Source of the DNA: Steroidobacteraceae bacterium
Lineage (GTDB): Bacteria > Pseudomonadota > Gammaproteobacteria > Steroidobacterales > Steroidobacteraceae
Direction of reading: 5' to 3'
Assembly (NCBI GenBank): GCA_036786925.1
Contig: DAIQQI010000002.1
Span: 1 to 34,576 of the forward strand
Length of the DNA: 34,576 nt
In this document: piece after piece, positions 1,118 through 34,576 of the stretch
Layout of the letters: every line of letters begins with the position of its first letter
Numbering within the stretch: the first letter of the stretch is position 1
Program-made: the position numbers and the translations under genes
Notes under the pieces: generated by a model
What the model saw: only the letters and a program-made list of their open reading frames with translations
Database searches by the model: none
Told to the model about the DNA's origin: nothing

Positions 1118-1366
1118 CTAGGTCTTTATCTCCCGCGCCAGAACCACGCTGACCGACTCCGTGTCTGGATCAAAAACGATGTACGCTTCGCGACGGCGCA
1201 GCTGAGCTAACACCTGGGTAACCTTGTCGTCGAGTGAACTTTCATGCAGGCCATAGTCCGTGCCTTCGCGCAGGATGAAGGACTCAATGACCGCGCGCAG
1301 CGTTGCCGGCGCTAGATCATCGAGCGCCACGCGGATGGGTGCCTGGTCTTCAGTCTGGTCTGGCAT
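1118..1366 (-). CDS. yheU: YheU family protein (UPF0270)
   Basis: 82-aa ORF. The IESFILREGTDYG...KV..V..QL..GEA-type core closely resembles E. coli YheU. Confidence 0.7.
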   Translation of the reverse strand: MPDQTEDQAPIRVALDDLAPATLRAVIESFILREGTDYGLHESSLDDKVTQVLAQLRRREAYIVFDPDTESVSVVLAREIKT

Positions 1367-1443
1367 GATTGTCAGACTATAATCACCTTATGTGTGGGAC
1401 CGGGCAACAAGCGCGTTTCTTTGCAAGCGCTTACGCTTAGACG

Positions 1444-1863
1444 ATGAACGCGACACGACCAGCGGGATACTCAGGCACTCCACTCGCCAAAAAGCTCGGA
1501 TATCGCGACGGTAATCGCGTGTTTCTGCTGACCGCGCCAAGGAATTACCGCGCACTCGTGGACCCTTTGCCGGCAGGTATTCTGTTCGAAAAATCGCTCG
1601 GCGCGACGACCGATCTGGTCCACGCGTTCCTCACGGATAAAGCCGAGCTTGGTAAGTTTCTGAAATCAGCTCGCCAAACGCTGAAGCCCGACGCGAGCGT
1701 CTGGGTATCCTGGCCGAAGAAGTCATCGAAAGTGCCGACGACGATCACCGAAGACACGATTCGCGAGCTGGCGTTGCCGTTAGGTATGGTCGACATCAAG
1801 GTTTGCGCGGTCGATGACACCTGGTCCGGTCTGAAGCTGGTCATACGCAAGGCGCTGCGTTGA
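1444..1863 (+). CDS. DUF3052 domain protein
   Basis: 139-aa ORF starting at ATG 1444. The N-terminal GYSGTPLAKKLG motif and the overall length are typical of DUF3052 (recalled, not searched). Confidence 0.55.
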   Translation: MNATRPAGYSGTPLAKKLGYRDGNRVFLLTAPRNYRALVDPLPAGILFEKSLGATTDLVHAFLTDKAELGKFLKSARQTLKPDASVWVSWPKKSSKVPTTITEDTIRELALPLGMVDIKVCAVDDTWSGLKLVIRKALR

Positions 1864-1868
1864 GCTCC

Positions 1869-2819
1869 ATGCTCAAACGGCCGCCGGTCTGGATCGCGTT
1901 AGCGCTTGTTGCGGCGCTGGTGTGGGTAGCGGCCGAGTATCGCGCGGACATGAATCGCGCCTATGCGCGCGTGCGCGCCAGCGGCACGGTCATCGCATCG
2001 CCTTACGGCGACATCGAATACACCTCGGGCGGTTCCGGCCCTCCTGTGCTGGTGATTCATGGCAGCGGCGGCGGCTACGACCAGGGCGAACTGATGGTGC
2101 GTGCGGTGCTCGGCGAGCAATTCCACTGGATTGCGCCGTCGCGCTTTGGGTACTTGCGCTCGACGTTCCGTGCCGGCGCTACGTTTGACGACCAGGCGCA
2201 TGCGTATGCGTATCTTCTCGATAAGCTGGGCATCAGGAAGGTCGCGGTCGTCACTTTGTCCCACGGCGGACCGTCGGCCTTGCTGTTCGCCGCCCTGCAT
2301 CCTGAGCGCGTGTCGTCACTGACGCTCATTTCCACAGGCGTAGCGGCATCGACCGACCCGAATCAATCACAGGCGAATCAGAAGGGCGACATGCTGAAGA
2401 CAATTTTTCAGCATGACTTTTTGTACTGGACAATCTCCCGCGTATTCAAAACGCAGTTGATGGAACTGATGGGAGCTAACAAACAAGTGATCGCGAGCCT
2501 GACGCCGCTGCAGCGCGACCTCGTTGTCCAGATCATCGATTTCATGAATCCGGTCGCGCCGCGCTCAGCCGGTACCGTTTTCGACAACCAGGCGGCCATG
2601 CCCAACGAACGGATCGCCGCGATCCGCGCCCGGACCTTGATCTTCCATGCCGCCGACGATGGGCTGCAGCTCTACCGCAATGCCGAGTACGCCGAGGCCC
2701 ATATCCCGGGCGCAAAACTGGTTCGCTTCGAGCGCGGAGGACATCTGGTCATTTGCATCGAGCAGCGGGTCATCCGCGCGATGACGCAAAAACACATTGC
2801 CGATACGACGGGCGAGTGA
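1869..2819 (+). CDS. Alpha/beta hydrolase, membrane-anchored
   Basis: ORF 1860..2819. ATG 1869 is preferred because the TTG at 1860 overlaps the upstream stop. It has an N-terminal TM helix, an HGSGGG oxyanion motif and an LSHGG nucleophile elbow. Confidence 0.75.
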   Translation: MLKRPPVWIALALVAALVWVAAEYRADMNRAYARVRASGTVIASPYGDIEYTSGGSGPPVLVIHGSGGGYDQGELMVRAVLGEQFHWIAPSRFGYLRSTFRAGATFDDQAHAYAYLLDKLGIRKVAVVTLSHGGPSALLFAALHPERVSSLTLISTGVAASTDPNQSQANQKGDMLKTIFQHDFLYWTISRVFKTQLMELMGANKQVIASLTPLQRDLVVQIIDFMNPVAPRSAGTVFDNQAAMPNERIAAIRARTLIFHAADDGLQLYRNAEYAEAHIPGAKLVRFERGGHLVICIEQRVIRAMTQKHIADTTGE

Positions 2820-2971
2820 CAGACGGCTGCAGCGACGCTGATCGAGCGCTGGGACGCGCCCGGAAAAGACCCCGTAGCAGGTGTGGCCTGCGGTGTCGCG
2901 GATCAACCAGTTGTACGTGACCGGCGGTTGGCTTAGGCTGGCGCTCCCCAACAACAAGAAGGATGCTGACC

Positions 2972-3244
2972 ATGCCCAGATACGTCATTGAACGAGAGAT
3001 CCCGGGTGCCGGAAAGCTAACAGCCGCTGAGCTGCAGGGCATCTCCCAGAAATCCTGTGGAGTGTTGCAGGGAATGGGGCCGAAGATCCAATGGGTCGAG
3101 AGCTTTGTCACGGACGACAAGGTCTACTGCGTCTACATCGCGCCCAACGAAGCGGCGGTGCGTGAGCATGCACAGAAGGGCGGATTCCCGGCGAACAAGG
3201 TTTCCCAGGTTCGCAACGTCATCAGCCCGACTACCGCAGAGTAG
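2972..3244 (+). CDS. DUF4242 domain protein
   Basis: ORF 2963..3244. ATG 2972 gives the MPRYVIEREIPG N-terminus typical of the family, with AAGGA 7-8 nt upstream. Confidence 0.6.
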   Translation: MPRYVIEREIPGAGKLTAAELQGISQKSCGVLQGMGPKIQWVESFVTDDKVYCVYIAPNEAAVREHAQKGGFPANKVSQVRNVISPTTAE

Positions 3245-3281: not shown

Positions 3282-3358
3282 ACCTACTGGAATTCATCCT
3301 TGGTTCGTTGCCGCGCCCTCGAGGGCGCAGTCAATGTCGGTAACGCGTGAGGTGTGCC

Positions 3359-3844
3359 ATGAAGATTCCCAACTTGCGAATATTCGCGATACGAGTTCTG
3401 CTGGCAATTGCCGCAATCACCGGCGCCTCCGGCGCCGCGGCCGAGAATTTGGTTCCCGCGGGTTTCCAGGGGAAGTGGGTGCCCGCCAAGGCGGCCTGTA
3501 CGTCGCCAGTTGCCGTATTGATCACCGCTGATCGGTTAACGCTGGTCAATGGCAACGACCGCGAAGCGCTCGGTGGCATCGAAATGGCCGGCCCCGGATA
3601 CTTCGCCCCCGACTACAGCGGCATCATGGCCGTGCTGATCACCGAATTCACCGGCCAGCAGCCATTGACTGCAACCTTCAATGTCGGGGAAAAGAAGGGC
3701 GTTGCCCAAGTCGATTTCGCGCCCGTCATGCCGGGCGCATCTAACGCACAGCTCAGGGCGTACAACGCCCGCATTTCGAAACTCAACCTCGCGAAGCGGT
3801 ATCCGTTGAATGCGGTGCCGCTCAAGAGGTGCCCGCGCGGATAG
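3359..3844 (+). CDS. Hypothetical secreted protein
   Basis: ORF 3347..3844. ATG 3359 is preceded by GAGG. The signal peptide is MKIPNLRIFAIRVLLAIAAITGASGAAA. I recognise no family. Confidence 0.5.
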   Translation: MKIPNLRIFAIRVLLAIAAITGASGAAAENLVPAGFQGKWVPAKAACTSPVAVLITADRLTLVNGNDREALGGIEMAGPGYFAPDYSGIMAVLITEFTGQQPLTATFNVGEKKGVAQVDFAPVMPGASNAQLRAYNARISKLNLAKRYPLNAVPLKRCPRG

Positions 3845-3869
3845 GGTGCCGTTAGGATCTGGAGGACTC

Positions 3870-4200: not shown

Positions 4201-5151
4201 ATGGTCGACAAGAAAATCATCGCAGTCGTAGGCGCCACGGGGGCGCAGGGCGGCGGGCTGGTGCGCGCAATCCTGGCCGATCCGAACGGCGGGTTCATAG
4301 CGCGCGCCATTACCAGAAACGCCAGTTCTGAAAAGGCCCAGGCACTTGCCAGGGCGGGCGCTGAGGTCGTCGCTGCTGACATCGACGACCAGGCAAGCCT
4401 GGCGGCGGCGCTGAAGGGCGCCTACGGCGCCTACTTCGTAACGTTTTTTTGGGAGCATTTTTCGCCCGAGAAAGAGCAGGCGGAAATTCGCACCATGGCT
4501 GCCGCGGCGAAGGCCGCGGGCCTCAAGCATGTCATCTGGTCGACACTCGAAGACTCGCGCCAGTGGATCCCGCTGTCGGACAACCGCATGCCGACGTTGA
4601 TGGGCAAGTACAAGGTTCCGCACTTCGACGCCAAAGGCGAATCTAACAAATTCTTCACCGAGATGGGCGTACCCACGACGTTCCTGTACACGTCGTTCTA
4701 CTGGGACAACCTGATCGGCTTCGGCATGGGGCCGAAGAAGGGCCCGGACGGCAAGCTTGCCTTCACATTGCCGATGGGCGACAAGAAATTGCCGGGCATG
4801 GCTGCTGAGGACATTGGCCGGTGTGCATACGGCATCTTCAGGAAGGGTTCGGAGTACATCGGCAAGAGCGTCGGCATCGCCGGCGAGCACCTGACCGGCA
4901 ACCAGATGGCCGATGCCCTGTCCCAGGCGTTAGGGCAGGACGTGCACTACAACGCGGTGACTCCGGAGATGTATCGAAGCTTCGGCTTTCCGGGCGCCGA
5001 TGACCTCGGCAACATGTTCCAGTTCAATCGCGATTTCGCGGAGATGTTTTGCAGTGCGCGCAGCGTGGACCTTTCCCGCGCGCTGAATCCGTCGCTGCAG
5101 ACCTTCAGGAAATGGCTGGCGGAGAACAAGTCTCGCATCCCGCTGGAGTAG
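4201..5151 (+). CDS. NmrA family NAD(P)-binding protein
   Basis: 316 aa. It has an N-terminal Rossmann motif (IAVVGATGAQGGGLV) and NmrA-like length and layout. Confidence 0.8.
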   Translation: MVDKKIIAVVGATGAQGGGLVRAILADPNGGFIARAITRNASSEKAQALARAGAEVVAADIDDQASLAAALKGAYGAYFVTFFWEHFSPEKEQAEIRTMAAAAKAAGLKHVIWSTLEDSRQWIPLSDNRMPTLMGKYKVPHFDAKGESNKFFTEMGVPTTFLYTSFYWDNLIGFGMGPKKGPDGKLAFTLPMGDKKLPGMAAEDIGRCAYGIFRKGSEYIGKSVGIAGEHLTGNQMADALSQALGQDVHYNAVTPEMYRSFGFPGADDLGNMFQFNRDFAEMFCSARSVDLSRALNPSLQTFRKWLAENKSRIPLE

Positions 5152-5163
5152 AGGAGCAATACG

Positions 5164-5682
5164 ATGAACTGGCATACGAAACGTGCTGCGTCTGGCATGG
5201 TGCTGGCGATGTTAGTGGTTGCACAAGCTTCCGCCTCGGAGGCGGACGAGGCCGCGATTCGGGCGCTGCAAGCGCGACAGGCGGCCGCCTGGAACGCGCA
5301 TGACGCGACAGCGTACGCAAACCTGTTCGCGCCGGACGGCGATGTCGTCAACGTGCTGGGCTGGTGGTGGCGGGGGCGTGCGGAGATTCAAAGCAAGCTC
5401 TCCGACGCGTTCGCGTGGGTGTTCCGCGACAGCAAGCTCACGATCACCGACGTGCACTCGCGTTTTCCCGATCGGACGACGGCCATCGTGCATGTGCGCT
5501 GGACGATGGATGGAGCCAAGGTGCCGCCCGGAGCGCCGACGCCGCCGCGCGAGGGTATCCAGTTGCAGGTGCTGCGCAAAGCTAACGGTCAATGGCTGAT
5601 CGCGAGCTTCCAGAACACGAACAGCATTCCCGAGACGCCATTTCCGAAAGGTCCGCCGCCGGCACCAGGCGCCACGCGATAA
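5164..5682 (+). CDS. SgcJ/EcaC family (NTF2-like, DUF4440) protein with signal peptide
   Basis: 172 aa with a signal peptide. The AWNAHDA.AYA.LF..DGD.V...G core is typical of SgcJ/EcaC. Confidence 0.6.
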   Translation: MNWHTKRAASGMVLAMLVVAQASASEADEAAIRALQARQAAAWNAHDATAYANLFAPDGDVVNVLGWWWRGRAEIQSKLSDAFAWVFRDSKLTITDVHSRFPDRTTAIVHVRWTMDGAKVPPGAPTPPREGIQLQVLRKANGQWLIASFQNTNSIPETPFPKGPPPAPGATR

Positions 5683-5696
5683 GAGATCCACTTGCC

Positions 5697-7235
5697 ATGG
5701 TGACAACACTCGCAGAAATTCTGCCGCAAGCCGCGCGCAAGCATAAAGACCGCGTTGCGTTGATCGTCGAAGAACGGCAGTTCTCGTTTCGCGAACTGGA
5801 TGCGATGTCCAACCGCGTTGCCAACGGCCTGGCCGCCACGGGCATTCAGCCGGGCGACCGCGTGAGCCTGTTCGGTGCTAACAGCTGGGAGTGGCTTGTC
5901 AGCTACTACGGCATTGTGAAAGCCGGCGCGGTCGTGAACCCGCTTAACACCATGCTCACGGCGGATGAAGTGCGATTTACGGTGACCGACGCGGGTTCCC
6001 GCGCGGTGCTGGCCGCGGCGGACAAAGCCGAGACCCTGCTGCCCCTGAAGGGCGTCGGCAACCTGACAGACCTGGTGTTCTGGGGCGAAGCGCCGGTCGC
6101 GGGGGCCAGGATGTTGAATGACTGGCTGCAGGGCGCCAGCGCGGAATTTACCGCGCCGCGGCGCCAGCCCGCGGACCTCGCCGCCATTTGTTATACGTCG
6201 GGCACGACCGGACGCCCGAAAGGCGCCATGCAGAGTCAGCGATCCGTGATCGGGGCAGCCGTAGGCACTGCGCTGATGTCGGTGCGTACCTCGGAGGATC
6301 GGCTCATCAACGCGCTGCCACTGCCGCATGTGTATGGCAGCTGTGTGTTCAATGCCGCGATGATGGTTGGCTCGATGCTGATCGTTGTTCCGCGCTTCAA
6401 CGAAATCGCCGTCCTCAGTGCCATCCAGCGGCATCGTGTCACGATCATGGACGGCGTACCGACGGCCTACTACTACCTGCTCGCACATCCGGACTTCGAC
6501 AAGTACGATCTTTCGAGCCTGTCCCGCTGCTGGGGAGGCGGTCAAACCTTGCCGGCGGCCAAGGCGCAGGAATTCACGGCGCGCACCGGTTGTGCGGTCT
6601 ACGAAGTCTGGGGCATGACCGAGCTGGCCGGTGCCGCGACGGCGAATCCAGCGTATGGACCTAACAAGTCTGGAACCATCGGCATTCCGTATCCCGGCAA
6701 CGCGTTCCGTATTGTGGACGTGGATGACGCCAACAGGGAAATGCCGCTGGGCGAACGCGGCGAGCTGATGTTTCGCGGCCCGATGGTGATGCAGGGCTAC
6801 TACAACAATCCGAAAGGCACGGCCGAGACCATCCGGCCCGATGGCTGGTTGCACACGGGCGACATTGCAACGATGGACGAAGATGGCTATGCGACGATCG
6901 TCGATCGCAAGAAGGACATGATCATCACGGCCGGATTCAACGTCTATCCCGCTGAAATTGAACGCGTGCTGTGCATGCACCCGGCGGTGGCGCTCGCGGC
7001 GGTCGGCAGCGTGCCGGACGAAGCGAAGGGTGAACTGGCCAAGGCCTACGTAATCCTGAAGCCGGGCGCCGAGGTGTCACGAGCCGACCTCGTGGCCCAT
7101 TGCCGCGCGCAACTGGCGGCCTACAAGGTCCCGCGCGCGCTGCAGTTTGTCTCGTCGGTGCCCACGACATCTTCGGGCAAGATCATGCGGCGGATGTTGA
7201 AAGACGTCGACGACGGAACGCTGACGGTCAATTGA
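5697..7235 (+). CDS. AMP-dependent acyl-CoA synthetase/ligase
   Basis: ORF 5592..7235. ATG 5697 is preferred (MVTTLAEILPQAARKH). It has the AMP-binding motif YTSGTTGRPKGA, GWLHTGD, and a C-terminal SSGKIMRR. Confidence 0.85.
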   Translation: MVTTLAEILPQAARKHKDRVALIVEERQFSFRELDAMSNRVANGLAATGIQPGDRVSLFGANSWEWLVSYYGIVKAGAVVNPLNTMLTADEVRFTVTDAGSRAVLAAADKAETLLPLKGVGNLTDLVFWGEAPVAGARMLNDWLQGASAEFTAPRRQPADLAAICYTSGTTGRPKGAMQSQRSVIGAAVGTALMSVRTSEDRLINALPLPHVYGSCVFNAAMMVGSMLIVVPRFNEIAVLSAIQRHRVTIMDGVPTAYYYLLAHPDFDKYDLSSLSRCWGGGQTLPAAKAQEFTARTGCAVYEVWGMTELAGAATANPAYGPNKSGTIGIPYPGNAFRIVDVDDANREMPLGERGELMFRGPMVMQGYYNNPKGTAETIRPDGWLHTGDIATMDEDGYATIVDRKKDMIITAGFNVYPAEIERVLCMHPAVALAAVGSVPDEAKGELAKAYVILKPGAEVSRADLVAHCRAQLAAYKVPRALQFVSSVPTTSSGKIMRRMLKDVDDGTLTVN

Positions 7236-7800
7236 GCTGCTGAGCCGTGTCGCGACCCAGTTTTTCCGCGAGGCGCATCGCGACCTGGCGATTCGGTTCG
7301 CCGCTATCCGTCTCTTCGTTAGGCCGGAAAATCCAGAACGAACGCGTGCTGATCACACGGGCTCCGGACTTGCGCAGCGCCTCATCGAGCAGCCTTTGCG
7401 AGCGCCCGGTGGAGCCGGCTCCGCCGATGATGCCGAGCGCCGCTATGCCATCCAATCGAGTTCGCGCCAGGTACCGCAGCGTCGGACGATCCGGCGTCCA
7501 CCAGTAGGTGTTGCTGACGACCGCGACCAGCTTGTAGTTGCTGAGCGCATCCGGTGTGGCGCCGGTCAGCGTGGCGCGTTCCACCGCCAAGCCGGCACTG
7601 ACCAGACCCCTGGCGAGCGCCAGAGACAACTCATCGCTGAAATGTGCATCGCGGCTCGGGTGATACAGGATCAGGGCCCTGGCGGGACCAGCGCCGCCGA
7701 GTACTTCATATTTGTAGTCGCCCTCGCTTTCGACGACCGCCGTCACGATTGCCGCGGTGGCCAGCAACAGGAAACCGATAACAAGCAGAACCGGCTTCAT
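7228..7800 (-). CDS. Membrane-anchored flavodoxin-fold protein
   Basis: 190 aa with an N-terminal TM helix. ALILYHPSRD...VVSNTYWW resembles flavodoxin-like domain proteins. It overlaps the acyl-CoA ligase 3' end by 8 nt, convergently. Confidence 0.45.
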   Translation of the reverse strand: MKPVLLVIGFLLLATAAIVTAVVESEGDYKYEVLGGAGPARALILYHPSRDAHFSDELSLALARGLVSAGLAVERATLTGATPDALSNYKLVAVVSNTYWWTPDRPTLRYLARTRLDGIAALGIIGGAGSTGRSQRLLDEALRKSGARVISTRSFWIFRPNEETDSGEPNRQVAMRLAEKLGRDTAQQLN

Positions 7801-7836: not shown

Positions 7837-8202
7837 TCAGTTCAAATCGACGTGCGTGACGACCGCATGCTCATCACCCTTGAGTGGCCTTGCGGGCGTC
7901 ACGCTCAGCAGGCGGGCGGAGAAGTCGTGGCATTCCCGCGGCTCCACGATCAGCGACTGGCCGTCGAAATTCACTTTCGCCGCAACCGCGCTAGCTTCGG
8001 ACTTGACGCAAACCCGGATGCGTTCGAGGTTTTCACTGGTGTGCAATGGGATGACCTTGTCGTCGGTCAGCACCACGCGTCCGGGCGTCAGCGCCGCGCC
8101 GACCTGATCGACGGCCGATGGTGTGTTAGTCACGAAGAAACTGACGGCTAACCCCACCACCAGGAGAACCGCGACAACACCCAGGATTTTGGATCCAGAC
8201 AT
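7837..8202 (-). CDS. Hypothetical membrane-anchored protein
   Basis: 121-aa ORF with an N-terminal TM helix. I recognise no family. It lies directly upstream of the flavodoxin-fold gene on the same strand. Confidence 0.45.
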   Translation of the reverse strand: MSGSKILGVVAVLLVVGLAVSFFVTNTPSAVDQVGAALTPGRVVLTDDKVIPLHTSENLERIRVCVKSEASAVAAKVNFDGQSLIVEPRECHDFSARLLSVTPARPLKGDEHAVVTHVDLN

Positions 8203-8209
8203 ACCCGGC

Positions 8210-8641: not shown

Positions 8642-8764
8642 TCGTGCGGTCACTATCTCAACGTTCTGAAAACCTAATCGTCCGGGAGGCATCCGGCAAT
8701 CGTGGAAACTACGGTATCGACCCGGGAACGCGCAATGTGAATGCGTCGCGCATAATAAGGTTAA

Positions 8765-10348: not shown

Positions 10349-10403
10349 GCGCGCGTACTCCACGTCGTTAGCCTTTGAATGCAGGGACTGAGGAGTGAGG
10401 GAC

Positions 10404-23502: not shown

Positions 23503-23615
23503 CGCGATCAGGTCCTTGTCTGCATTGCGGTGCCGCGGGGCGGCGCACATTGTAGCCCGCCGCGCGCAGTCGTTATTCTGCAGACTTACCGGTTGTCCTT
23601 TTGGCGGAGCAGCTT

Positions 23616-25820: not shown

Positions 25821-25845
25821 GAGAATCCCCTGTTTGTTATTTATT

Positions 25846-26907: not shown

Positions 26908-27590
26908 GTGGGCGCTCCTTCACTGACAACCCGGCCATCGACCAGCTTCACGACCCGGTCCACGACCGACACCATGCTGGCGTCATGCGTCACCATCACC
27001 GTGGCGACCTTGTGCGCGTGGCACTGCTGCGCCAGCAGCTCGACGATTTCGCGGCCGCGCCCCTGGTCCAGCATCGAGGTGGGCTCGTCCACCAGCAGCA
27101 GCGCCGGGTTGCCCATCAGCGCGCGGGCAATGCCGACACGCTGGCGCTCGCCACCCGACAGCTGTGCCGGCTTGCGAGTGGCGCGGTTCTCCATGCCAAC
27201 CTCGGCTAACAGACGCAGCGCCTCAGTGCGCGCCTTGCCGTGCGTGCCTTCGCCGTTCAGGTGCGCTACCAGCAGCAGCTGGTCGAGCGCGGTCAGCGAC
27301 GGCACGAGGTTCGACTGCTGAAACACGAAGCCGATGCGTTGCCGGCGGATCCGCGCCAGCTCGGAGTCGCTCAGATCGCCGAGGTTCACGCCACCCACGG
27401 TGACGCTGCCACTGCTGGCGCGCCGCAACCCGCCGCAGATCGCCAGCAGGCTCGACTTGCCGGCGCCGGACGGCCCCATGATCGCGACCATTTCGCCGGC
27501 CGAGACGTGGATATTCACGTTGTTGAGTATCGTCGCCTGTGCCTCGCCGTCGCCTAACAACAGCGAGATGTTCTGCGCCGCGAGCGTCAT
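26904..27590 (-). CDS. ABC transporter ATP-binding protein (MacB/LolD/FtsE type)
   Basis: ORF 26904..28172, but the real start is ATG 27590, which overlaps the permease stop (ATGA). It has Walker A (GPSGAGKSS), the signature LSGGERQR, and Walker B (LLLVDEPT). Confidence 0.9.
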   Translation of the reverse strand: MTLAAQNISLLLGDGEAQATILNNVNIHVSAGEMVAIMGPSGAGKSSLLAICGGLRRASSGSVTVGGVNLGDLSDSELARIRRQRIGFVFQQSNLVPSLTALDQLLLVAHLNGEGTHGKARTEALRLLAEVGMENRATRKPAQLSGGERQRVGIARALMGNPALLLVDEPTSMLDQGRGREIVELLAQQCHAHKVATVMVTHDASMVSVVDRVVKLVDGRVVSEGAPT

Positions 27591-28723
27591 CGGTCTCTCC
27601 CGAGCGCGATGATCGGCTCGATCTTGACGATGCGCCGCAGCGCGAACATCGCGCCGGCCAGGCCGGCGCCGATCAGCAGCAGCGAGCTGCCGACGACATT
27701 GCCGGTCGTGAGCTCGAACACCGAGCCGCGCGCCTCGAATGCGCTGGTGGTCCCGAAGGCCGCGAGCACGCCGATCCCGGTTGCGAACACCAGCACCAGC
27801 AGGACCTGGCTGAGCGCATCCCTGACCAGGTAGCCGTTGTCGGCGCCGAGCGCCTTGACCAGCCCGATCTCGGCGGTGCGCTGGATGGTCCAGATGGAAA
27901 AGAACGCACCTAACACGACTACGCAGGTCGCGATCAGGAAGAATTGCATCAGCCGCACGGTGAAGATTTCCGCGCTGTAGCCCGAGGTGCCGTCGTAGGA
28001 CTGCTCCTTGGTCATGGTCTTCGTGCCGATCTCCCGGTCGTGCGCCTTGATATCGACGCTGGCGTCCGGGTCGATCGCCAGCGCAATCGTGGTGGCGGCG
28101 GTGAAGATCGCCTCCGGCAGCGTATCGCCCGGCGGCGCGCCACCGGGGGGGCCGTAATTGGCCTCCTGCCATTTGCGCAACGGGACATAGGCGACGGGCG
28201 CGTGGCTGACCGCGACAGCCTCGGTGATGCCCACGACCTTGAACTCTGTCAGCACGCGATCGATCGTGATCGTGTCGCCGATCTTGACGTGCTTGTCCAG
28301 CGCGATCTTGCGTGAGATGACCATCGCGTTGGGCGCGGCCGAGAGGCCCTGGCCTTCAACAACCCTGGGTTCCGCAAATGAGCCTGGCACGACCCCCCAG
28401 AACGCGATATCGACCGGCGCGCCCTGCGCATCACGCGCATTCGCCAGCGAGTGGCCGATCGGCGTTGCCTTGACGCCGGGCACACCCGCCCATTTTTCCC
28501 AGGTCTCCTTGTCCAGCATGCTGTTCTGGTAGTCGGGCCGCGTGGAGTTCTCGAACGCCATGTGGGTCGCGGGCAGCTGCTGCAGCGCGGACACGCAGTC
28601 CTTGATGAGGCCGAATATCAGGCCGCCTAACACGACCACCAGGAACGCCACCAGTGTGACCACCAGGGCCATCAGGCCGAAGCGGCCCTTGGCATGCAGC
28701 ATGTCGCGCCACGCAAGGAACAT
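27587..28723 (-). CDS. ABC transporter permease, FtsX/MacB-like
   Basis: 378 aa. It has TM1, a periplasmic domain of about 200 aa, and three C-terminal TM helices (the FtsX domain layout). Its start overlaps the upstream stop by 1 nt (TGATG). Confidence 0.85.
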   Translation of the reverse strand: MFLAWRDMLHAKGRFGLMALVVTLVAFLVVVLGGLIFGLIKDCVSALQQLPATHMAFENSTRPDYQNSMLDKETWEKWAGVPGVKATPIGHSLANARDAQGAPVDIAFWGVVPGSFAEPRVVEGQGLSAAPNAMVISRKIALDKHVKIGDTITIDRVLTEFKVVGITEAVAVSHAPVAYVPLRKWQEANYGPPGGAPPGDTLPEAIFTAATTIALAIDPDASVDIKAHDREIGTKTMTKEQSYDGTSGYSAEIFTVRLMQFFLIATCVVVLGAFFSIWTIQRTAEIGLVKALGADNGYLVRDALSQVLLVLVFATGIGVLAAFGTTSAFEARGSVFELTTGNVVGSSLLLIGAGLAGAMFALRRIVKIEPIIALGRDR

Positions 28724-29466
28724 CAGAATTTCTCCAGCACAGAGCCGCAGCCCTGGATCTTGTCCGGGATTCCTGAGCGCCGCAAGGCGTCCCAGTAGGT
28801 AATGGCATTGATAGCTAACACCGGTTTGCCGAACCAGAGTTCGGCCTCTGCGGCGAGCCGTATTGCAGCGAGGTTGGTGCCCACCTGGACCAGCGCGTCG
28901 ACATCATCGCCGTTCAGCGCGCGCAGCGCGTCGATGACCTGCTGCTCGGTGGTATGCGCGATCAGCGTTGGCGAGGCGCACTTGAGGCCGGTCAGGCGCT
29001 TGACCGCGAATCCCGCTTCTTCGAAGTAGGTGCGCACCTGTTCATCGCCGCGCGGCTGGTGCGGCGTCAGCACCGCGATGCGCGTGGCGCCCAGCAGCTT
29101 GAGCGCCGCGCGCGTCGCAGTGGAACCCATGGAGATGCCGACGCCGGCGCGTTCTGTCAGCTCCTTCTGCAATTCGTCGGCGGCCTTGGCGCCGCCCCAG
29201 AACGCCTCGAGCGCCACGCCCATGATCACGTGCGTGGGCTGACAGGTCACGATCTGGTCGATGCCTGCGCGCATGCCATCGCGCATCAGCTGCACATGTT
29301 CCATGAAAGCCTGCTCGGTGGTGAGCGGACGTTCCCTGATGGTGATGCGCCCGGTGTGATTGGTGACGCCCCGGGGGCGCAGCATTTCGCATTCCGGCTG
29401 GCACGAGGTGTTGGTCGACGGCACGACGATGGCGATGCGAGCGCGATATCCGAGTTGATCAGTCAT
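28723..29466 (-). CDS. Asp/Glu/hydantoin racemase superfamily protein (maleate isomerase / arylmalonate decarboxylase-like)
   Basis: 247 aa. It has the N-terminal IAIVVPSTNT block and VAVLTP-type and DALV....N blocks typical of the family. By hand alignment, both positions that hold the catalytic Cys in maleate isomerase are non-Cys here. Its start overlaps the SDR stop (ATGA). Confidence 0.65.
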   Translation of the reverse strand: MTDQLGYRARIAIVVPSTNTSCQPECEMLRPRGVTNHTGRITIRERPLTTEQAFMEHVQLMRDGMRAGIDQIVTCQPTHVIMGVALEAFWGGAKAADELQKELTERAGVGISMGSTATRAALKLLGATRIAVLTPHQPRGDEQVRTYFEEAGFAVKRLTGLKCASPTLIAHTTEQQVIDALRALNGDDVDALVQVGTNLAAIRLAAEAELWFGKPVLAINAITYWDALRRSGIPDKIQGCGSVLEKF

Positions 29467-30251
29467 GGCGTCTTGACGCTGCCTCCGTCCAGTGTGATCG
29501 AGGTGCCGGTGGTGTGGCCGGCGAGTTCCGATGCCAGGAACAACACCTGCGCCGCCACCTGTTCGGCGCTGCCCAGTTTGCGCAGCGCAGATTTCGCGAG
29601 AAACGGCGCCTCGACATCAGCCACGGTACGCTTCTCCTGCGCAGCGATGTCAGCCATCTGCTGGTCCCAGCGGCTCGAGCGGACCGGTCCGGGGTTCACG
29701 GCGTTGATGCAAATCCCCTGCGGCCCCACTTCCTCCGCCAGTCCACGCACGATGGCTAACAAGGCCGAATTCGCCGCCGCCCCCGGCAGCATCCTGGGCT
29801 CCGGCAATTTCGCCGAGTTGCCGACGATCACCACAATGCGCCCGGCGCGACGCGCCTGCATGCCGGGCAGCGCAGCCCGCAGCAGCCGAATCGTTCCGAA
29901 CAACTTCAATTCGAGATTACGCTTCCAGTCGGCGTCGGATAAGTCCGTAAAAATACCGCCCTGTGCATTGCCGGCTGCGCACACCAGCACATCGATGGGT
30001 CCGCCTTGTCGCACGGCGCCGGCAATCGCCGCATCGGTGCTGGCCGCGTCGGTCAGGTCAGATTGAATGCCGTCGACGACCTGGCCGCCGGCGCTGGTCA
30101 GTTCGCGCACCAGCGCCGCGAGTTTTTCCAGCGACCGGCCTAACAAACTGAGGCGCGCGCCTTCGGTCGCGAACGCGCGGGCGCAGGCTGCGCCCAGGCC
30201 GCCGGTCGCGCCGGCGATCAGCACATGCCGGTCGCGTAATTTAAGATCCAT
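29463..30251 (-). CDS. SDR family oxidoreductase
   Basis: ORF 29463..30353. ATG 30251 has AAGGAG upstream. It has the cofactor motif GATGGLG, an NAG motif, and a classical SDR length of 262 aa. Confidence 0.85.
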   Translation of the reverse strand: MDLKLRDRHVLIAGATGGLGAACARAFATEGARLSLLGRSLEKLAALVRELTSAGGQVVDGIQSDLTDAASTDAAIAGAVRQGGPIDVLVCAAGNAQGGIFTDLSDADWKRNLELKLFGTIRLLRAALPGMQARRAGRIVVIVGNSAKLPEPRMLPGAAANSALLAIVRGLAEEVGPQGICINAVNPGPVRSSRWDQQMADIAAQEKRTVADVEAPFLAKSALRKLGSAEQVAAQVLFLASELAGHTTGTSITLDGGSVKTP

Positions 30252-30265
30252 GCTCAGGGGCTCCT

Positions 30266-31279
30266 TCAGCGGCTGCGGGCGAGGGCGGCGCCGGCGCCTA
30301 ACGCGCGCAGCTTGGCGCGCGCCAGGTCGGCGGGCAGCGGCGCCATGCCGCAATTGGTACAGGGTACAAGTCTTTCACGATCCACGTGTTTGAGCGCGGC
30401 GCCGATATTGGCCGCAACCTCGGCCGCGGTTTCCAGCTTTCCCGGCAGGACTTCGACCGCGCCGACCAGCAGCTCCTTGTCTTTCAGCAGCCGCAGCACC
30501 TCATGCGGCACTTTGGAGCCGGCGAACTCGACCGATACCGCCTGCACGCTGCTCGCGTTGATCCAGGGAAAAATGGCCTCGTATTGCCGCCAGCTGTCGC
30601 CCAGGGTGCTCTTCCACTTGATGTTAGCTTCGATGCCGTAGCCGTAGCAGATATGCACGACCGTCTTCGCCTTCAGGCCGCGCATCGCGCGCTCCAGCGC
30701 CGGCAGGCCCCAGTCGCGCACCTCGTCGATGAAAACGTTGAAGGCCGGTTCGTCGAACTGGATCACGTCCGCGCCCGCGGCCTCGATCTGCAGCGCTTCC
30801 TGGTTGAGCAGCTCCGCAAACTTCATGGCCATGTCGGCGCGCGAGCTGTAGTAACTGTTAGCAATCGTGTCGCAGATCGTCATCGGGCCGGGCAGGGTGA
30901 TCTTCAGTTGCCGCGCTGTCTGTGCCCGCATATAGGCGGCATCGGCGACGTGCACCGGCGACGGGCGTGCCAGCGCGGCAACCACCGTGGGCACTTCCGC
31001 CTCGTAACGGTTGTTGCGAATGCCCATGCGCGTCTTGCGGTTCCAGTCGATGCCCTGGATGTTCTCGAGGAAACCGTGCACGAAGTGCACGCGAAACTGC
31101 TCGCCATCGCCCACGATGTCGATCCCGGCGGCTTCCTGTTCGCGCAGCCACTCGAGTGCGGCTCGTTGCTTGCCCTGCTGCAACGCGTCGCCGGCGAGAC
31201 GCCAGGGCGCCCAGATCTTTTCGGGCTCGGCCAGCCAGTCCGGTTTTGGAAGGCTGCCGACGGTGGTGGTTTTGAGCAC
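30266..31279 (-). CDS. Single-barrel cobalamin-independent methionine synthase family protein ('core' MetE-like)
   Basis: 337 aa with a GTG start at 31279. TTTVGSLPKP, GDGEQ.R, DEPA, HICYG and NCGM are blocks of the MetE C-terminal barrel type, including the Zn-ligand contexts. It is the first gene of the operon. Confidence 0.75.
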   Translation of the reverse strand: MLKTTTVGSLPKPDWLAEPEKIWAPWRLAGDALQQGKQRAALEWLREQEAAGIDIVGDGEQFRVHFVHGFLENIQGIDWNRKTRMGIRNNRYEAEVPTVVAALARPSPVHVADAAYMRAQTARQLKITLPGPMTICDTIANSYYSSRADMAMKFAELLNQEALQIEAAGADVIQFDEPAFNVFIDEVRDWGLPALERAMRGLKAKTVVHICYGYGIEANIKWKSTLGDSWRQYEAIFPWINASSVQAVSVEFAGSKVPHEVLRLLKDKELLVGAVEVLPGKLETAAEVAANIGAALKHVDRERLVPCTNCGMAPLPADLARAKLRALGAGAALARSR

Positions 31280-31468: not shown

Positions 31469-31497
31469 ATATTTAGCCAGCCGACTTGCATTGTCAA
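31469..31497 (-). promoter_or_regulatory. Candidate sigma70-type promoter of the metE-like operon
   Basis: On the minus strand there is a perfect TTGACA (31497-31492), then 16-17 nt, then the A/T-rich TAAATAT (31475-31469). This implies a leader of about 180 nt before GTG 31279. Confidence 0.4.
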
Positions 31498-31515
31498 GCT
31501 TTTGTACAGTATAAA
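31486..31515 (+). promoter_or_regulatory. Candidate promoter of the carH-like gene
   Basis: TTGCAT (31486-31491), 18 nt, TATAAA (31510-31515). It lies in the only strongly AT-rich stretch of the intergenic region. Confidence 0.3.
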
Positions 31516-31535
31516 ACTAAATATAAGGTGTACAA
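31502..31535. promoter_or_regulatory. Inverted repeat TTGTACA-N20-TGTACAA (candidate operator)
   Basis: Two perfect 7-bp arms at 31502-31508 and 31529-31535. They overlap the carH-like promoter and RBS, immediately upstream of the operon -35. Confidence 0.35.
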
Positions 31536-31536
31536 C

Positions 31537-32436
31537 ATGGCTGAATTTTCGATAAAGGCCACCGCCAAGGCGACTGGCCTGACCGTCGAGACCCTCAGGG
31601 CCTGGGAACGGCGTTACGAGGCCGTACTGCCCAGTCGTGATGTCGCGGGCAGGCGCGGCTACTCGTCTGCTGACATCGCGCGCCTGCGGTTGCTGCGGTC
31701 CGCAACCGAGTTGGGGCACCCCATTTCGAAGGTCGCAAAGATGCCGCCGGATGAATTGGCGAAGCTGGTCAGCGATGCCGGAGGTTTGGCGCGGATTACC
31801 GCGCGCGGTCAGAGCTTCGTGCAACGCGCGCTCGATGCCGCGGAGCACTCGGATTCGATCGGCGTCGAAGAGACACTGATGTCGGCGATGGCAGTGCTGC
31901 CGCCGCACGAAGTAGCGGGCAGCGTGATCACTCCGCTGCTGATCGAAGTTGGCGATCGCTGGCACCGCGGCCAGTTGCGTATCTCCCAGGAACACATGGT
32001 CACCGACATCGTACGGCGCCTGGTGACCAATGCGTCGCGCAGCTATTTCATCGCGGAAAACGCGCCTTGCCTGATGCTGACGACCTTGAGCGGCGAGCGT
32101 CACGAGCTGGGGCTCATGCTGTGCCTGTGGCTTGCTGCAGCGCGCCGCTGCCGTACCCATTACCTCGGCCCGGACACCCCCGTGCCTGACATCGTGGAGT
32201 ACGCGCGTGACGTCGAGGCGGACGCGGTTCTGCTGTCGATGGTCATGTCCGAGATGGACGTCCCGGCCAGGACGCAGCTCGGCCTGCTGGCCGCGCAATT
32301 GCAGCCGAATACCGAGATCTGGGTTGGCGGTCGGGCCGCGCAGACCATGCGCGAAGACCAGGTGCCGCTGGGCGTGGTCTTGCTGCCGTCGCTAACAGAC
32401 TACGAGCAGCGGCTCGACACGCTTATGGTTAAGTAG
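31537..32436 (+). CDS. CarH/LitR-type MerR family regulator with cobalamin-binding domain
   Basis: ORF 31486..32436. ATG 31537 has AAGGTG upstream. It has an N-terminal MerR HTH (ATAKATGLTVETLRAWERRY). The helical cap carries Wx9EH (W-HRGQLRISQ-EH). The Rossmann B12 domain has GERHELG (ExHxxG), LLSMV (SxL) and VGG. Confidence 0.75.
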   Translation: MAEFSIKATAKATGLTVETLRAWERRYEAVLPSRDVAGRRGYSSADIARLRLLRSATELGHPISKVAKMPPDELAKLVSDAGGLARITARGQSFVQRALDAAEHSDSIGVEETLMSAMAVLPPHEVAGSVITPLLIEVGDRWHRGQLRISQEHMVTDIVRRLVTNASRSYFIAENAPCLMLTTLSGERHELGLMLCLWLAAARRCRTHYLGPDTPVPDIVEYARDVEADAVLLSMVMSEMDVPARTQLGLLAAQLQPNTEIWVGGRAAQTMREDQVPLGVVLLPSLTDYEQRLDTLMVK

Positions 32437-32512
32437 CGCGCGTCAACCGACAACGCGCTCGCGCGTTTCCCTGATAGCGGTAGAATCGGGCTGCCGCTCA
32501 GGGAGGCGACCT

Positions 32513-34210
32513 ATGGCACGCAGCAGCAAGATTGCGCAACTCGCAATAGCCGGATTTTTGGCCTTGGTCGCCGGTTGTGGCGGCGGTGGCGGCGCGAGTT
32601 CGCCACCACCCCCGGTACCGCCGCCGCCGATCAGCAAGATCGAGGCGTATCGTTTTCTCAATCAGGCCACTTTCGGCGCAACCGAAGCCGAGGCCCAGCG
32701 CCTGATCGCGTTAGGTGACAGCACCAACAGCTACTCGCGCTGGCTGGACGAACAATTCGCCAAGGCGCCTTCGACCCAGTTGCCGACCGTAGCCGCAGCG
32801 GTACCCAACCCGATTCCGGTCGGCTTCAATATCGGCTCGCTGCAGGCGCAACGGGTCGAGGCCTGGTTCCAGAATTCCCTGAATGGCGACGACCAGTTGC
32901 GCCAGCGCGTGGCCTTCGCGCTGTCCGAGATCATGGTTGTGTCGCAGGTCGGTGCGCTGGCGAATTTCCCGTTGTCGCTGGCTGATTATTACGACATGTT
33001 AGCGCGCGACGCCTTCGGCGATTATCGCAAGCTGCTCGAAGACGTGACGCTGCACGTGTCGATGGGCATTTATCTGTCGATGCTGGGCAACCAGAAGCCG
33101 AATCCGACGCTCAATATCCGGCCCGACGAAAACTACGCGCGCGAACTGATGCAGCTGTTCAGTATCGGCCTGGTCGAACTCAACACCGACGGCACGCCGC
33201 GCCTCGTGAACAGCCAGGCGGTTTCAACCTATGACCAGTCGATCATCGAAGGCTTTGCTAACGTGTACACGGGCTGGCGCTACGCCGGTGGCACATCGTT
33301 CGCCAATGCGGGGCGCGCCACGTTGACCAACCAGGTGCAGCCGATGCAGGCCTACGCGGAGCAGCACTCCACCGGTACCAAGAAGCTGTTGAGTTACGCC
33401 GGCGCCGCGGTGACGACAATTCCTGCGGGGCAGACGCCGGCCCAGGATCTGGCCAATGCGCTCGACAACATCTTCAATCACCCCAATGTCGGGCCGTTCA
33501 TCTCGAAACAGCTGATCCAGAAACTGGTGACCAGCAATCCAAGCCCGGCGTACGTCGCACGCGTTGCCGCCGTCGTCAACAGCGACAGCCAGGGCCGCCG
33601 CGGCAACCTGCAATCGGTCATCCGCGCCATTTTGCTGGATAGCGACGCGCGCTCGGCGCCAACTGCGCAGACCGCGGGTAAGATCAAGGAGCCGCTGCTG
33701 CGGCTGACCCAGCTGTGGCGCGCCTACGGCGCGCGCGCCGCGAGCGGCAAATATACGGCTGCGGCGACCGGCGGTCCGTCGGCGACGTTCGCGCAGGGGC
33801 CGCTGCAATCCGGCTCCGTGTTCAATTTCTTCAGTCCGTTTTATGCGCCCACCGGCGAGATTGCCAACCAGAACCTGGTCGCGCCCGAGATGCAGCTGGC
33901 GACTGAGTACAACAACACGCAGTTCATCAATTTCTTCTGGGTGCAGGCTATCGCCCGCACCACGGCGCAGACCGGCCTGGGAGCGGATGTGGTGGTCATC
34001 GACACCACGCAGGAACAGGCGGTCGCCAATGATTCCGAAGCCCTGGTGAACCGGGTCGCGGAAAAATTGTTAGGCGGGCAGATATCCGCTGAACTGAAAG
34101 CAAGCGTCAAGACCCAGGTCGATCGGACCGCGACCACCGTGCCTAACACCCGGGTGGCCGACGCGATATACCTGATCTCTACAGCGCCTGAATTCGTGCT
34201 GCAGCGCTAA
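32513..34210 (+). CDS. DUF1800 domain lipoprotein
   Basis: 565 aa. GGAGG lies upstream. It has a lipobox (LVAGCGG) and a Pro-rich linker. The FLNQATFG and NENYARELMELFT-like (NYARELMQLFSIG) blocks are typical of DUF1800. Confidence 0.8.
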   Translation: MARSSKIAQLAIAGFLALVAGCGGGGGASSPPPPVPPPPISKIEAYRFLNQATFGATEAEAQRLIALGDSTNSYSRWLDEQFAKAPSTQLPTVAAAVPNPIPVGFNIGSLQAQRVEAWFQNSLNGDDQLRQRVAFALSEIMVVSQVGALANFPLSLADYYDMLARDAFGDYRKLLEDVTLHVSMGIYLSMLGNQKPNPTLNIRPDENYARELMQLFSIGLVELNTDGTPRLVNSQAVSTYDQSIIEGFANVYTGWRYAGGTSFANAGRATLTNQVQPMQAYAEQHSTGTKKLLSYAGAAVTTIPAGQTPAQDLANALDNIFNHPNVGPFISKQLIQKLVTSNPSPAYVARVAAVVNSDSQGRRGNLQSVIRAILLDSDARSAPTAQTAGKIKEPLLRLTQLWRAYGARAASGKYTAAATGGPSATFAQGPLQSGSVFNFFSPFYAPTGEIANQNLVAPEMQLATEYNNTQFINFFWVQAIARTTAQTGLGADVVVIDTTQEQAVANDSEALVNRVAEKLLGGQISAELKASVKTQVDRTATTVPNTRVADAIYLISTAPEFVLQR

Positions 34211-34226
34211 AGGACGGAGAACAGTC

Positions 34227-34576
34227 ATGAACTACAATCGACGCAAGTTTCTCCGCAGGGTTTCCGCCGGCGGCCTGGCCTACGCGCTGTCGCGCACACC
34301 GGGTACCGTTTGGGGCCAGATGGCCGGCGCCGGCGGCTTCGGCGAGTATCGCGCCCTGGTCTGCGTATTCATGTTCGGCGGCAACGATTCCTGGAACATG
34401 GTCGTGCCGCGCACCACGGCCGAGTACAACGCCTACAACAGCGCGCGCGGCGGTGACCAGGGCGTCGGCGCCGGGCTGGCGGTGCCGTTAGCTTCGCTTC
34501 TGCCGATCGACCCGATCGGCACTACCGGCGCGCCTTTCGGATTTCATCCGAGCATGACCGGCGTGCAGCAGCTGTT
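34227..34576 (+). CDS. DUF1501 domain protein (5' partial, runs off the window)
   Basis: ATG 34227 has GGAG upstream. It has a TAT signal (NRRKFLRRVSAGGLA) and the FGGNDS.N block typical of DUF1501. This is the usual partner of DUF1800. Confidence 0.75.
   Translation, partial: MNYNRRKFLRRVSAGGLAYALSRTPGTVWGQMAGAGGFGEYRALVCVFMFGGNDSWNMVVPRTTAEYNAYNSARGGDQGVGAGLAVPLASLLPIDPIGTTGAPFGFHPSMTGVQQL

Follow-up and report, generated by a model that had tools for sequence, protein, structure and literature searches.

YGTTAG, a short asymmetric word iterated through GC-rich DNA of uncultured Steroidobacteraceae-like Gammaproteobacteria, as a candidate self tag

Background

Why would a GC-rich bacterium write one short, AT-rich word into its genes dozens of times, with codons that are otherwise avoided, in both orientations and in several reading frames? 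The question is raised by positions 1 to 34,576 of contig DAIQQI010000002.1 (Steroidobacteraceae bacterium; this 34,576-bp stretch is hereafter "the window"), in which a first-pass annotation had noted many copies of the pentamer GTTAG and had attributed them to a constraint at the level of DNA instead of a translational mechanism of the bldA type. Here we show that the word, 5'-YGTTAG(S)-3' (Y, pyrimidine; S, C or G), acts at the level of DNA, independently of orientation, and that its copies are conserved between related genomes and evenly spaced. We propose, with a probability of roughly 40%, that the word serves as an iterated, lineage-specific tag of "self", of the same general kind as the uptake signal sequences (USS) of Pasteurellaceae, the DNA uptake sequences (DUS) of Neisseriaceae and the highly iterated palindrome HIP1 of cyanobacteria, recognized by a stringent reader and possibly adenine-methylated.

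Only three lineages (Pasteurellaceae, Neisseriaceae, and cyanobacteria) are known to have words iterated genome-wide for which a part in DNA exchange has been demonstrated or is suspected. The word described here would add a fourth, from stream bacteria that are uncultured and GC-rich, with features not found in the other three: it is asymmetric, only 6-7 bp long, and placed at the expense of codon preference and at times of protein sequence. Its density ranges from 0 to 3.7 copies/kb among relatives, a natural contrast that makes the question of the reader directly testable. The word also provides a practical barcode for binning contigs of the lineage, and it calls for caution in analyses of codon usage and horizontal gene transfer because the inflated usage of TTA, CTA and NCT codons is not translational.

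Methods

GTTAG was scanned on both strands of the window (63% G+C), and each copy was assigned a frame using a list of 39 genes, with Pfam support for most of the open reading frames (ORFs) used. Relatives were obtained by scanning species-representative genomes, which yielded five metagenome-assembled genomes (MAGs) of Gammaproteobacteria from glacier-fed-stream-type samples (L001-L005). Exact-protein look-ups meant to extend the contig of the window returned no record. More distant loci were obtained by placing amine-oxidase homologues on their contigs, and identities given for these loci are those of the amine-oxidase protein to that of the window. Conservation was measured as the retention of motif hexamers in syntenic alignments, relative to a baseline of codon-phase-matched hexamers. 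GC-rich controls comprised 26 unrelated contigs of at least 57% G+C (314 kb in total); the unrelated control contigs are metagenome loci matched via a generic FAD-binding peptide and serve as controls for composition only.

Results and discussion

Definition and specificity of the word

The window contains 71 copies of GTTAG (30 on the plus and 41 on the minus strand), whereas dinucleotide-preserving shuffles yield 20.0±4.5 copies with a maximum of 31. Words differing at the last position are found 8 (GTTAA), 23 (GTTAC) and 13 (GTTAT) times, and those differing at the first position 4 (ATTAG), 2 (CTTAG) and 6 (TTTAG) times. C or T precedes 70 of the 71 copies, for a YGTTAG:RGTTAG ratio of 70:1 (R, purine), and C or G follows 61 of them, from which the word is written 5'-YGTTAG(S)-3'. 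Information is limited to positions -1 through +1 around GTTAG, with wider flanks near background, and an extended motif of 9-12 bp with informative flanks, as in USS and DUS, was not found. None of the single-base neighbours of YGTTAG displays a comparable pyrimidine/purine contrast, a pyrimidine-specific excess or a depletion (for instance, YGTTGG occurs 29 times vs 28 for RGTTGG, and YGTCAG 58 times vs 40 for RGTCAG). The contrast between YGTTAG and RGTTAG points to a putative reader with the near all-or-none stringency of restriction-modification enzymes.

YGTTAG is found at 2.0/kb in the window and at 0.057/kb in the unrelated GC-rich contigs, an enrichment of approximately 35-fold; AT-rich control contigs carry 0.6-0.9/kb. 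As in USS and DUS, the word is over-represented in both orientations (2.0-3.7/kb in the motif-rich lineages described below). We also considered TGTTAG as a promoter-like element or extended -10 box and discarded this reading, given that T is not enriched at the required downstream position, and promoter and terminator scans of the window returned background levels only.

Realization of the word in coding sequence

Using the largely Pfam-checked gene list, we reproduced exactly the earlier tally of 71 copies, 68 of them coding, and its division into 36 NNG-TTA-GNN, 19 NCT-AAC, 10 CTA-ACR and 3 GTT-AGN copies; the remaining 3 (3851, 10367, and 17923) are non-coding. The word thus uses all four stop-free frames on both strands, and 29 copies (NCT-AAC and CTA-ACR) lie antisense to their genes. 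When synonymous codons were permuted with the inflated TTA, CTA and NCT usage retained, 9.8±2.9 YGTTAG (maximum 22) were obtained, compared to 67 observed in coding sequence. The tabulation of the motif-forming fraction that had been called for as a check gave approximately 462 positions at which the word could be held synonymously, of which these 67 are occupied: 15% of xYG-TTA-Gxx, 14% of CTA-ACR, 27% of xCT-AAC-Rxx and 3% (3/91) of xxY-GTT-AGx opportunities. Estimates from codon frequencies and opportunity counts put the expected number of CTA-ACR copies below 1 (10 observed) and that of NCT-AAC copies at approximately 3 (19 observed), an antisense enrichment of 6-20-fold. The scarcity of GTT-AGN was considered as a case against a pure DNA-level pull, but it reflects how few sites are accessible: an AGN codon comes directly after only 28 Val codons, and a change from TCN to AGY does not run through synonymous codons.

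The flanking rules hold irrespective of orientation. Of 229 TTA-class sites after a residue that can be encoded by NYG, 35 were used, compared to 1 of 126 after a residue restricted to NRG; as counted earlier, 35 of the 36 TTA cases have a pyrimidine two bases upstream. Of 62 NCT-AAC sites before a codon beginning with R, 19 were used, compared to 0 of 38 before one beginning with Y; the -1 pyrimidine rule is therefore strict in both orientations. The preference for C or G at +1 is reflected in the use of Leu-Ala and Leu-Gly sites (31/126) relative to Leu-Val, Leu-Asp and Leu-Glu sites (4/103). TTA codons, present in 30 of the 39 genes, number 48 in frame, of which 36 are in the G_G context; the first-pass annotation, which had listed only two TTA codons outside GTTAG, needs correction on this point, as we counted 12. 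The G_G context nonetheless holds 75% of TTA codons, compared to 18% of CTG codons, so TTA is not equally common outside it. Two stacks of rare codons reported earlier, GTT-AGA-TTA at 10070 and CTA-ACA-AGA at 12404, are present in the sequence, and the acyl-CoA ligase does contain the peptide FGANSWEW.

Selection for off-frame ("ambush") stop codons was also rejected: the word introduces TAG and, on the opposite strand, TAA, the relative frames of these triplets differ across the four classes, and the strict pyrimidine is left unexplained. As a separate observation, in the window and in three loci with little or none of the word (L008, L013, and L015), codons ending in G are seldom found before a codon beginning with G; the next codon begins with G after 11-21% of TTG and 25-34% of CTG codons, vs 56-73% of CTC codons. 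This codon-pair bias is common to motif-free relatives and unrelated to the motif. No tRNA genes were found in the window or in L001-L005; given TTA in 30 of the 39 genes, a tRNA-Leu(UAA) is to be expected in the full genomes.

Conservation and turnover of orthologous sites

Motif copies were retained above expectation in all five MAGs: 36 of 39 in L005 (90-94% nucleotide identity; 26.1 expected, P=2e-4), 28 of 31 in L002 (93-97%; 20.9 expected, P=3e-3), 20 of 23 in L003 (89-90%; 12.7 expected, P=1e-3), 24 of 27 in L001 (89%; 14.4 expected, P=1e-4) and 18 of 35 in L004 (76-79%; 7.8 expected, P=1.5e-4). Orthologous copies are thus conserved above neutral expectation, as those of HIP1 are. Within 6.1 kb aligned across six genomes, the union of motif sites numbers 21, of which 5 are found in all six genomes and 5 in the five closest; the remaining sites are lineage-specific gains or losses, homoplasies included. 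Alleles that replace the word are ordinary codons, mostly 2-3 bases away from it. Given a constant density and changing sites, density is maintained as positions drift slowly. TGTTAG at 20480-20485 is common to the window and L004, the most distant member of the clade, and the four closer relatives carry TGCCCG, TGCCTG or TGCTCG (2-3 bases off), so that its sharing reflects either a parallel gain or a recombination event.

The earlier suggestion that the changes are synonymous holds for one part of the copies only. TTA-class sites compared to motif-free orthologues retained Leu in 13 of 18 comparisons, mostly as CTC or CTG. Antisense-class copies, in contrast, encode the same dipeptide as the motif-free orthologue in just 3 of 21 comparisons, most NCT-AAC and CTA-ACR copies standing opposite other residues (for example, Ala-Asn in the window vs Ala-Lys or Thr-Asn, and Leu-Thr vs Leu-Glu, Leu-Lys or Leu-Ala). 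Judging from these alignments, the word appears often to have been bought with amino-acid changes at variable positions. These replacements in the antisense classes strengthen the DNA-level reading. Coding copies lie mainly at poorly conserved residues, and the same placement at poorly conserved amino acids has been reported for uptake sequences (PMC2817400).

Spacing, orientation and placement

Copies are distributed more evenly than chance would have it. The coefficient of variation (CV) of spacing is 0.69, compared to 0.96±0.11 when sites are chosen at random among the synonymous opportunities (P=0.0014), and counts per 2-kb bin (4, 4, 5, 2, 1, 5, 4, 4, 4, 3, 6, 5, 5, 4, 3, 4, and 4) have an index of dispersion of 0.36. 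CVs of 0.69-0.83 were obtained in every motif-rich or intermediate related locus measured. The spacing is under-dispersed (quasi-periodic), as reported for HIP1, and density is held evenly at about 1 copy per 0.3-0.5 kb. Pairs within 25 bp number 1, vs approximately 3.5 by chance (estimated from the mean spacing). At least one copy is found in 36 of the 39 genes (P=0.0008 vs uniform placement); however, a rule that every gene carries one was rejected, since P rises to 0.06 when even spacing is taken into account and L010, L014 and L017 do not repeat the pattern. The longest motif-free stretch (8153-10069, 1.9 kb) covers a Usp gene and the N-terminal two-thirds of an APH/AAA_33 kinase gene, and the 2-kb bin around it has the lowest G+C of the window (0.60); we estimate that about 1.4 such gaps would arise under exponential spacing, which places it within chance.

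Orientation is weakly linked to gene strand: 48% of copies in plus-strand genes and 65% of those in minus-strand genes are in the sense direction. In L010, 30 copies are sense and 28 antisense, and the coding copies divide into 26 plus and 32 minus. A minus-strand excess was noted at 12-31 kb of the window (32 vs 17 copies), but in the window and L010 (stretches of up to 35 kb) we saw no sign of a replication-type strand skew beyond that of gene orientation.

Distribution among relatives

The amine oxidases of L001-L005 are 88-97% identical to that of the window, and all five MAGs carry YGTTAG at 2.3-2.4/kb with the same pyrimidine rule. With five independent MAGs carrying the word, an assembly artefact or a peculiarity of a single genome is excluded. 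According to the source names given for some of the homologous proteins, the group lies near Steroidobacteraceae. Among more distant loci, density is graded: 3.7 YGTTAG/kb in L007 (74% identity), 3.1/kb in L010 and L011 (64%), 1.7/kb in L014 (62%), 1.3/kb in L017 (60%), 0.6/kb in L012 (61%), 0.4/kb in L016 (61%), 0.2/kb in L015 (63%), 0.05/kb in L013 (60%) and 0 in L008 (65%). In a single-gene tree, motif-rich lineages occupy at least three places, interleaved with motif-free ones; the distribution is patchy but lineage-wide. Motif-free relatives of similar G+C have 1-9 TTA per 4,350-6,656 codons, with 0 in the G_G context, which bears out the earlier claim that TTA is rare at this G+C and indicates that the rare codons are avoided elsewhere in the group. 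In the xYG-Leu-GSx context, TTA accounts for 33.5% of Leu codons in motif-rich, 9.8% in intermediate and 0% in motif-free loci.

Four of the distant loci (L012, L014, L016, and L017) are enriched in the GTTAG core, at lower density than the window, and have a different flank: T is favoured at -2 (13/17 copies in L012 and 18/32 in L014), and the -1 pyrimidine rule is looser (Y:R of approximately 2-3:1 vs 70:1 in the window). This variant may be a dialect of the word.

Two regions of the window differ in gene content between relatives. Positions 17930-19796 form a variable spot, corresponding to L002:11564-19326, L003:6479-11907 and L005:11615-14523, with a different cassette in each relative (Amidohydro_2, AHSA1/polyketide-cyclase-like and 3-dmu-9_3-mt genes in L002; a PpoB2 copper chaperone and bPH_4 in L003). 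The cassettes are lower in G+C (0.55-0.60), and neither methylase nor mobile-element genes were found in the lineage-specific ones. We considered, and rejected, a depletion of the word in accessory DNA, as these cassettes carry it at a normal density of 1.3-2.4/kb. The second region, 25881-28667, encodes a 353-aa protein, an ABC ATPase and an FtsX permease; it is present in L002, L004 and L005 and absent from L001 and L003, and carries the motif at a normal 2.15/kb. We read the difference as a probable deletion in L001 and L003 rather than a recent insertion in the window.

Comparison with known iterated words

USS and DUS share several features with YGTTAG: a single short word is present at approximately 1-2/kb in both orientations, mostly in genes; it spreads by substitution, with poorly conserved amino acids as sites (PMC2817400); and it is common to related species, with dialect-like variation in the flanks. 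YGTTAG differs in its length (6-7 bp vs 9-12 bp), its use of the rarest instead of preferred codons, its much weaker contrast with random DNA, and its lack of terminator inverted pairs and of an intergenic excess. Its hosts, uncultured Steroidobacteraceae-like Gammaproteobacteria, belong to a lineage without known uptake specificity, and any uptake bias or cognate receptor for the word is hypothetical. The spacing of USS is more even than random, and even spacing was computed here for YGTTAG.

In cyanobacteria, HIP1 (GCGATCGC) and other highly iterated palindromes resemble YGTTAG in being very abundant short words in coding and non-coding DNA, in spreading by substitution, in their conservation, quasi-periodicity and polyphyletic or patchy distribution, and in a function that was long obscure. 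HIP1 has been described as conserved by purifying selection, quasi-periodic, linked to methylases and spread by substitution, and was recently reported to enhance transformation in a way that depends on methylation. HIP1, however, is palindromic, 8 bp long and includes known sites of methylases (DmtA, DmtC), whereas YGTTAGS is an asymmetric word of 6-7 bp, AT-rich within a GC-rich genome, and has no identified cognate methylase. Tags marked by methylation (RAATTY, methylated HIP1) offer a third likeness, as a 6-8-bp site such as YGTTAG could be a mark of self if methylated. In Campylobacter, RAATTY together with CtsM constitutes a methylation-marked transformation tag, although RAATTY is not known to be over-represented beyond composition and YGTTAG is enriched about 35-fold.

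YGTTAG is thus not a classical USS or DUS, being too short, lacking terminator pairs and having only a putative uptake bias, and it is not a highly iterated palindrome, as it is not palindromic; to judge by its pattern in these genomes, it seems to work like a member of the class of highly iterated genomic words without the defining features of either family. Our literature search returned no description of YGTTAG as a bacterial genomic motif, and a recent survey covers uptake-enhancing sequences only in Pasteurellaceae and Neisseriaceae. The YGTTAG tag of uncultured GC-rich freshwater Gammaproteobacteria therefore appears to be undescribed so far.

Interpretation and rival explanations

The word accumulates by point substitution where the frame permits (as Leu-TTA with Ala or Gly next, as Leu-Thr, or as Ala/Pro/Ser/Thr-Asn), against codon preference and in part against protein sequence, with single sites turning over slowly. 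As a self tag, it would be read as double-stranded DNA and not as codons, and would be kept by purifying selection or biased conversion. The tag would favour uptake and/or recombination of conspecific DNA, and the adenine at hexamer position 5 may be methylated for the reading; such methylation would solve the weak discrimination of a short word against AT-rich DNA. From the patterns above we infer a reader protein, and what we say of its identity, of any methylation, of the role of the word and of its link to transformation is to be taken in the same conditional sense. A more far-reaching version, which we regard as unlikely, would have the word belong to a previously unknown genome-wide self-marking system, distinct both from classical uptake sequences and from restriction-modification targets, with a stringent reader, probable coupling to methylation, a tag every few hundred bp and a determinant that moved between lineages; the tag requirement would then prevail over codon choice and even over the encoded protein.

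Several results weigh against the self tag. At about 72-73% nucleotide identity (L007 and L010 vs the window), the sharing of sites equals neutral expectation. There is no intergenic excess, with 3-4 of 70 copies in the approximately 7% of DNA that is non-coding, and inverted terminator pairs, which characterize DUS and USS, were not seen. The normal density in the variable cassettes offers no contrast with foreign DNA lacking the tag. A 6-7-bp word at 2-3.7/kb reaches only 3-6 times its density in AT-rich DNA and would, if unmethylated, discriminate poorly against low-GC foreign DNA. No methyltransferase, pilin, ComP, ComEA or other reader gene was seen in the approximately 35 kb of the window and approximately 200 kb of related loci, and competence of the hosts, which are uncultured bacteria, is putative.

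The word may instead be the target of an orphan adenine methyltransferase, or of one similar to those of restriction-modification, bacteriophage exclusion (BREX) or Type III systems, with a housekeeping role that needs a minimum density and does not involve DNA uptake (for methylated sites, examples are telling the strands apart during repair, the timing of replication, or the organisation of the chromosome). An asymmetric 6-bp site with a degenerate Y and A at position 5 is the shape of Type III, MmeI-like and BREX PglX sites, and the all-or-none specificity, even spacing and conserved sites fit such a target, as does the patchy distribution expected of a mobile methylase gene. However, the window and related loci show no methyltransferase gene, and restriction-modification sites are usually avoided or neutral instead of being enriched about 35-fold, such that we consider this explanation possible but doubtful. 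A lineage-specific nucleoid-associated or chromosome-structuring protein, with spacing selected for DNA architecture, would account for the under-dispersion in all motif-rich loci and for the use of both orientations with no sign of replication-linked skew, and the same idea has been proposed for HIP1. We think it improbable, as such proteins usually tolerate near-cognate sites, the one-base neighbours of YGTTAG are not enriched, and a known candidate protein is lacking. The word could also be a functionless by-product of a context-specific bias in mutation or repair, such as a ratchet resembling very-short-patch repair that converts near-cognates; this has likewise been proposed for HIP1 and would agree with the graded densities among lineages (0.4-3.7/kb) and the turnover of single sites. 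Under such a ratchet the single-base neighbours should be depleted in the pyrimidine context, which they are not; the low frequency of TTG before G, matched in motif-free relatives, reflects a general codon-pair bias and not a consumed intermediate; replacement alleles are usually 2-3 bases away; and blind mutation should not yield spacing more even than a random choice among opportunities. We therefore give this ratchet no better odds than the structural protein.

Still lower in our estimation is a Chi-like recombination hotspot, or another signal of polar architecture, of which RecBCD/AddAB or FtsK would read one strand. Chi is also a short, over-represented, conserved and largely genic word, and the local minus-strand excess at 12-31 kb could be taken for polarity; that excess, however, tracks gene orientation, and L010 is nearly balanced. 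Known Chi words and FtsK-orienting polar sequences (KOPS) are G-rich and built of frequent codons, and Chi is polar with respect to replication; YGTTAG is made of rare codons and shows no sign of a replication-like skew in stretches of 20-35 kb. A translational device, by which a rare TTA codon of the bldA type or a codon-pair preference tied to tRNA-Leu(UAA) would explain the word, is the least credible of all and deserves next to no weight. In its favour, TTA is in frame in 36 of the 68 coding copies and is otherwise rare, as it is in Streptomyces, where TTA is the rarest Leu codon of a GC-rich genome. In Streptomyces, however, TTA is restricted to a small minority of genes and bldA acts in frame, whereas here the presence of TTA in 30 of 39 genes excludes a bldA-type regulon, 29 copies are antisense and enriched, the pyrimidine rule holds on the antisense strand, and 3 copies are non-coding. 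Pfam support speaks against gene-calling errors in the antisense classes. The first-pass preference for a DNA-level constraint over a bldA-like mechanism is thus upheld.

Location of the copies

Coordinates below are those of the pentamer, with gene coordinates in brackets. In the NNG-TTA-GNN class, copies on the plus strand, in plus-strand genes, are at 1779-1783 (1444-1863), 1898-1902 (1860-2819), 4929-4933 (4201-5151), 5211-5215 (5164-5682), 18519-18523 (17986-18528), 19651-19655 (19037-19768), 32710-32714, 32998-33002 and 34069-34073 (all 32513-34210; the first of these also in the distant motif-rich lineage L010), and 34487-34491 (partial gene, 34227-34574). Copies of the same class on the minus strand, in minus-strand genes, are at 1207-1211 (1118-1366), 8148-8152 (7837-8202; GGTTAGC, the sole RGTTAG copy), 13114-13118 (12890-14911), 15007-15011 and 15442-15446 (14939-15964), 16677-16681 and 16767-16771 (16204-17352), 18714-18718 (DUF427 gene, 18565-19278), 20018-20022 and 20282-20286 (amine oxidase gene, 19797-21380), 21458-21462, 21824-21828 and 22370-22374 (21423-22418), 24818-24822, 25055-25059 and 25694-25698 (24555-25907), 25956-25960 and 26880-26884 (25846-26907), 27206-27210 and 27554-27558 (ABC ATPase gene, 26904-27590), 27910-27914 and 28627-28631 (FtsX permease gene, 27587-28723), 28815-28819 (28723-29466), 29756-29760 and 30140-30144 (29463-30353), and 30298-30302 (30266-31279).

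The antisense classes lie on the strand opposite to that of their gene. NCT-AAC copies on the minus strand, in plus-strand genes, are at 2476-2480 (1860-2819), 3741-3745 (3347-3844), 4643-4647 (4201-5151), 5582-5586 (5164-5682), 5878-5882 (the FGANSWEW site) and 6661-6665 (both in the acyl-CoA ligase gene, 5592-7235), 24106-24110 (23601-24548), and 33258-33262 and 34143-34147 (32513-34210); those on the plus strand, in minus-strand genes, are at 7318-7322 (7228-7800), 8125-8129 (7837-8202), 11458-11462 (10894-11880), 13568-13572 (12890-14911), 20481-20485 (the site shared with L004) and 20712-20716 (amine oxidase gene), 22392-22396 (21423-22418), 22999-23003 (22423-23550), and 30623-30627 and 30857-30861 (30266-31279). 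CTA-ACR copies are on the minus strand at 3017-3021 (2963-3244), 10599-10603 (10395-10874), 12404-12408 (12011-12541; CTA-ACA-AGA), 17700-17704 (17343-17909), 23973-23977 (23601-24548) and 32392-32396 (31486-32436), all in plus-strand genes, and on the plus strand at 11861-11865 (10894-11880), 13881-13885 (12890-14911), 15339-15343 (14939-15964) and 23393-23397 (22423-23550), all in minus-strand genes. The GTT-AGN copies follow the strand of their genes, at 509-513 (plus; 5-1096), 10070-10074 (plus; 8765-10348, GTT-AGA-TTA) and 15258-15262 (minus; 14939-15964, GTT-AGG). The non-coding copies, all on the plus strand, are at 3851-3855, 10367-10371 and 17923-17927, the first of which would be of the TTA class if the YCII gene started at 3810 instead of 3870. 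Copies kept in 6/6 genomes are those starting at 21458, 22392, 23393, 24106 and 25055.

Gene content of the window

The gene survey and Pfam matches describe ordinary chromosomal DNA, with products that include hydrolases, an acyl-CoA ligase, dehydrogenases, a FabH-like enzyme, an amine oxidase, an ABC/FtsX transporter, a MetE-like protein and DUF1800/DUF1501 proteins. A small ORF at 12432-12893 (plus strand) encodes a TfoX N-terminal domain (PF04993, E=4e-29), and its region can be aligned, at least in part, in L005. TfoX/Sxy proteins are competence regulators in several Gammaproteobacteria; as stand-alone TfoX_N proteins are widespread, the gene is only a hint of competence. The mechanically called ORF of the ABC ATPase (26904-28172, minus strand; 422 aa) overlaps the FtsX permease gene by approximately 590 bp. 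Its ABC_tran domain begins at residue 216, and the true start is therefore probably near 27590, which leaves a 4-bp overlap with the stop of the permease gene.

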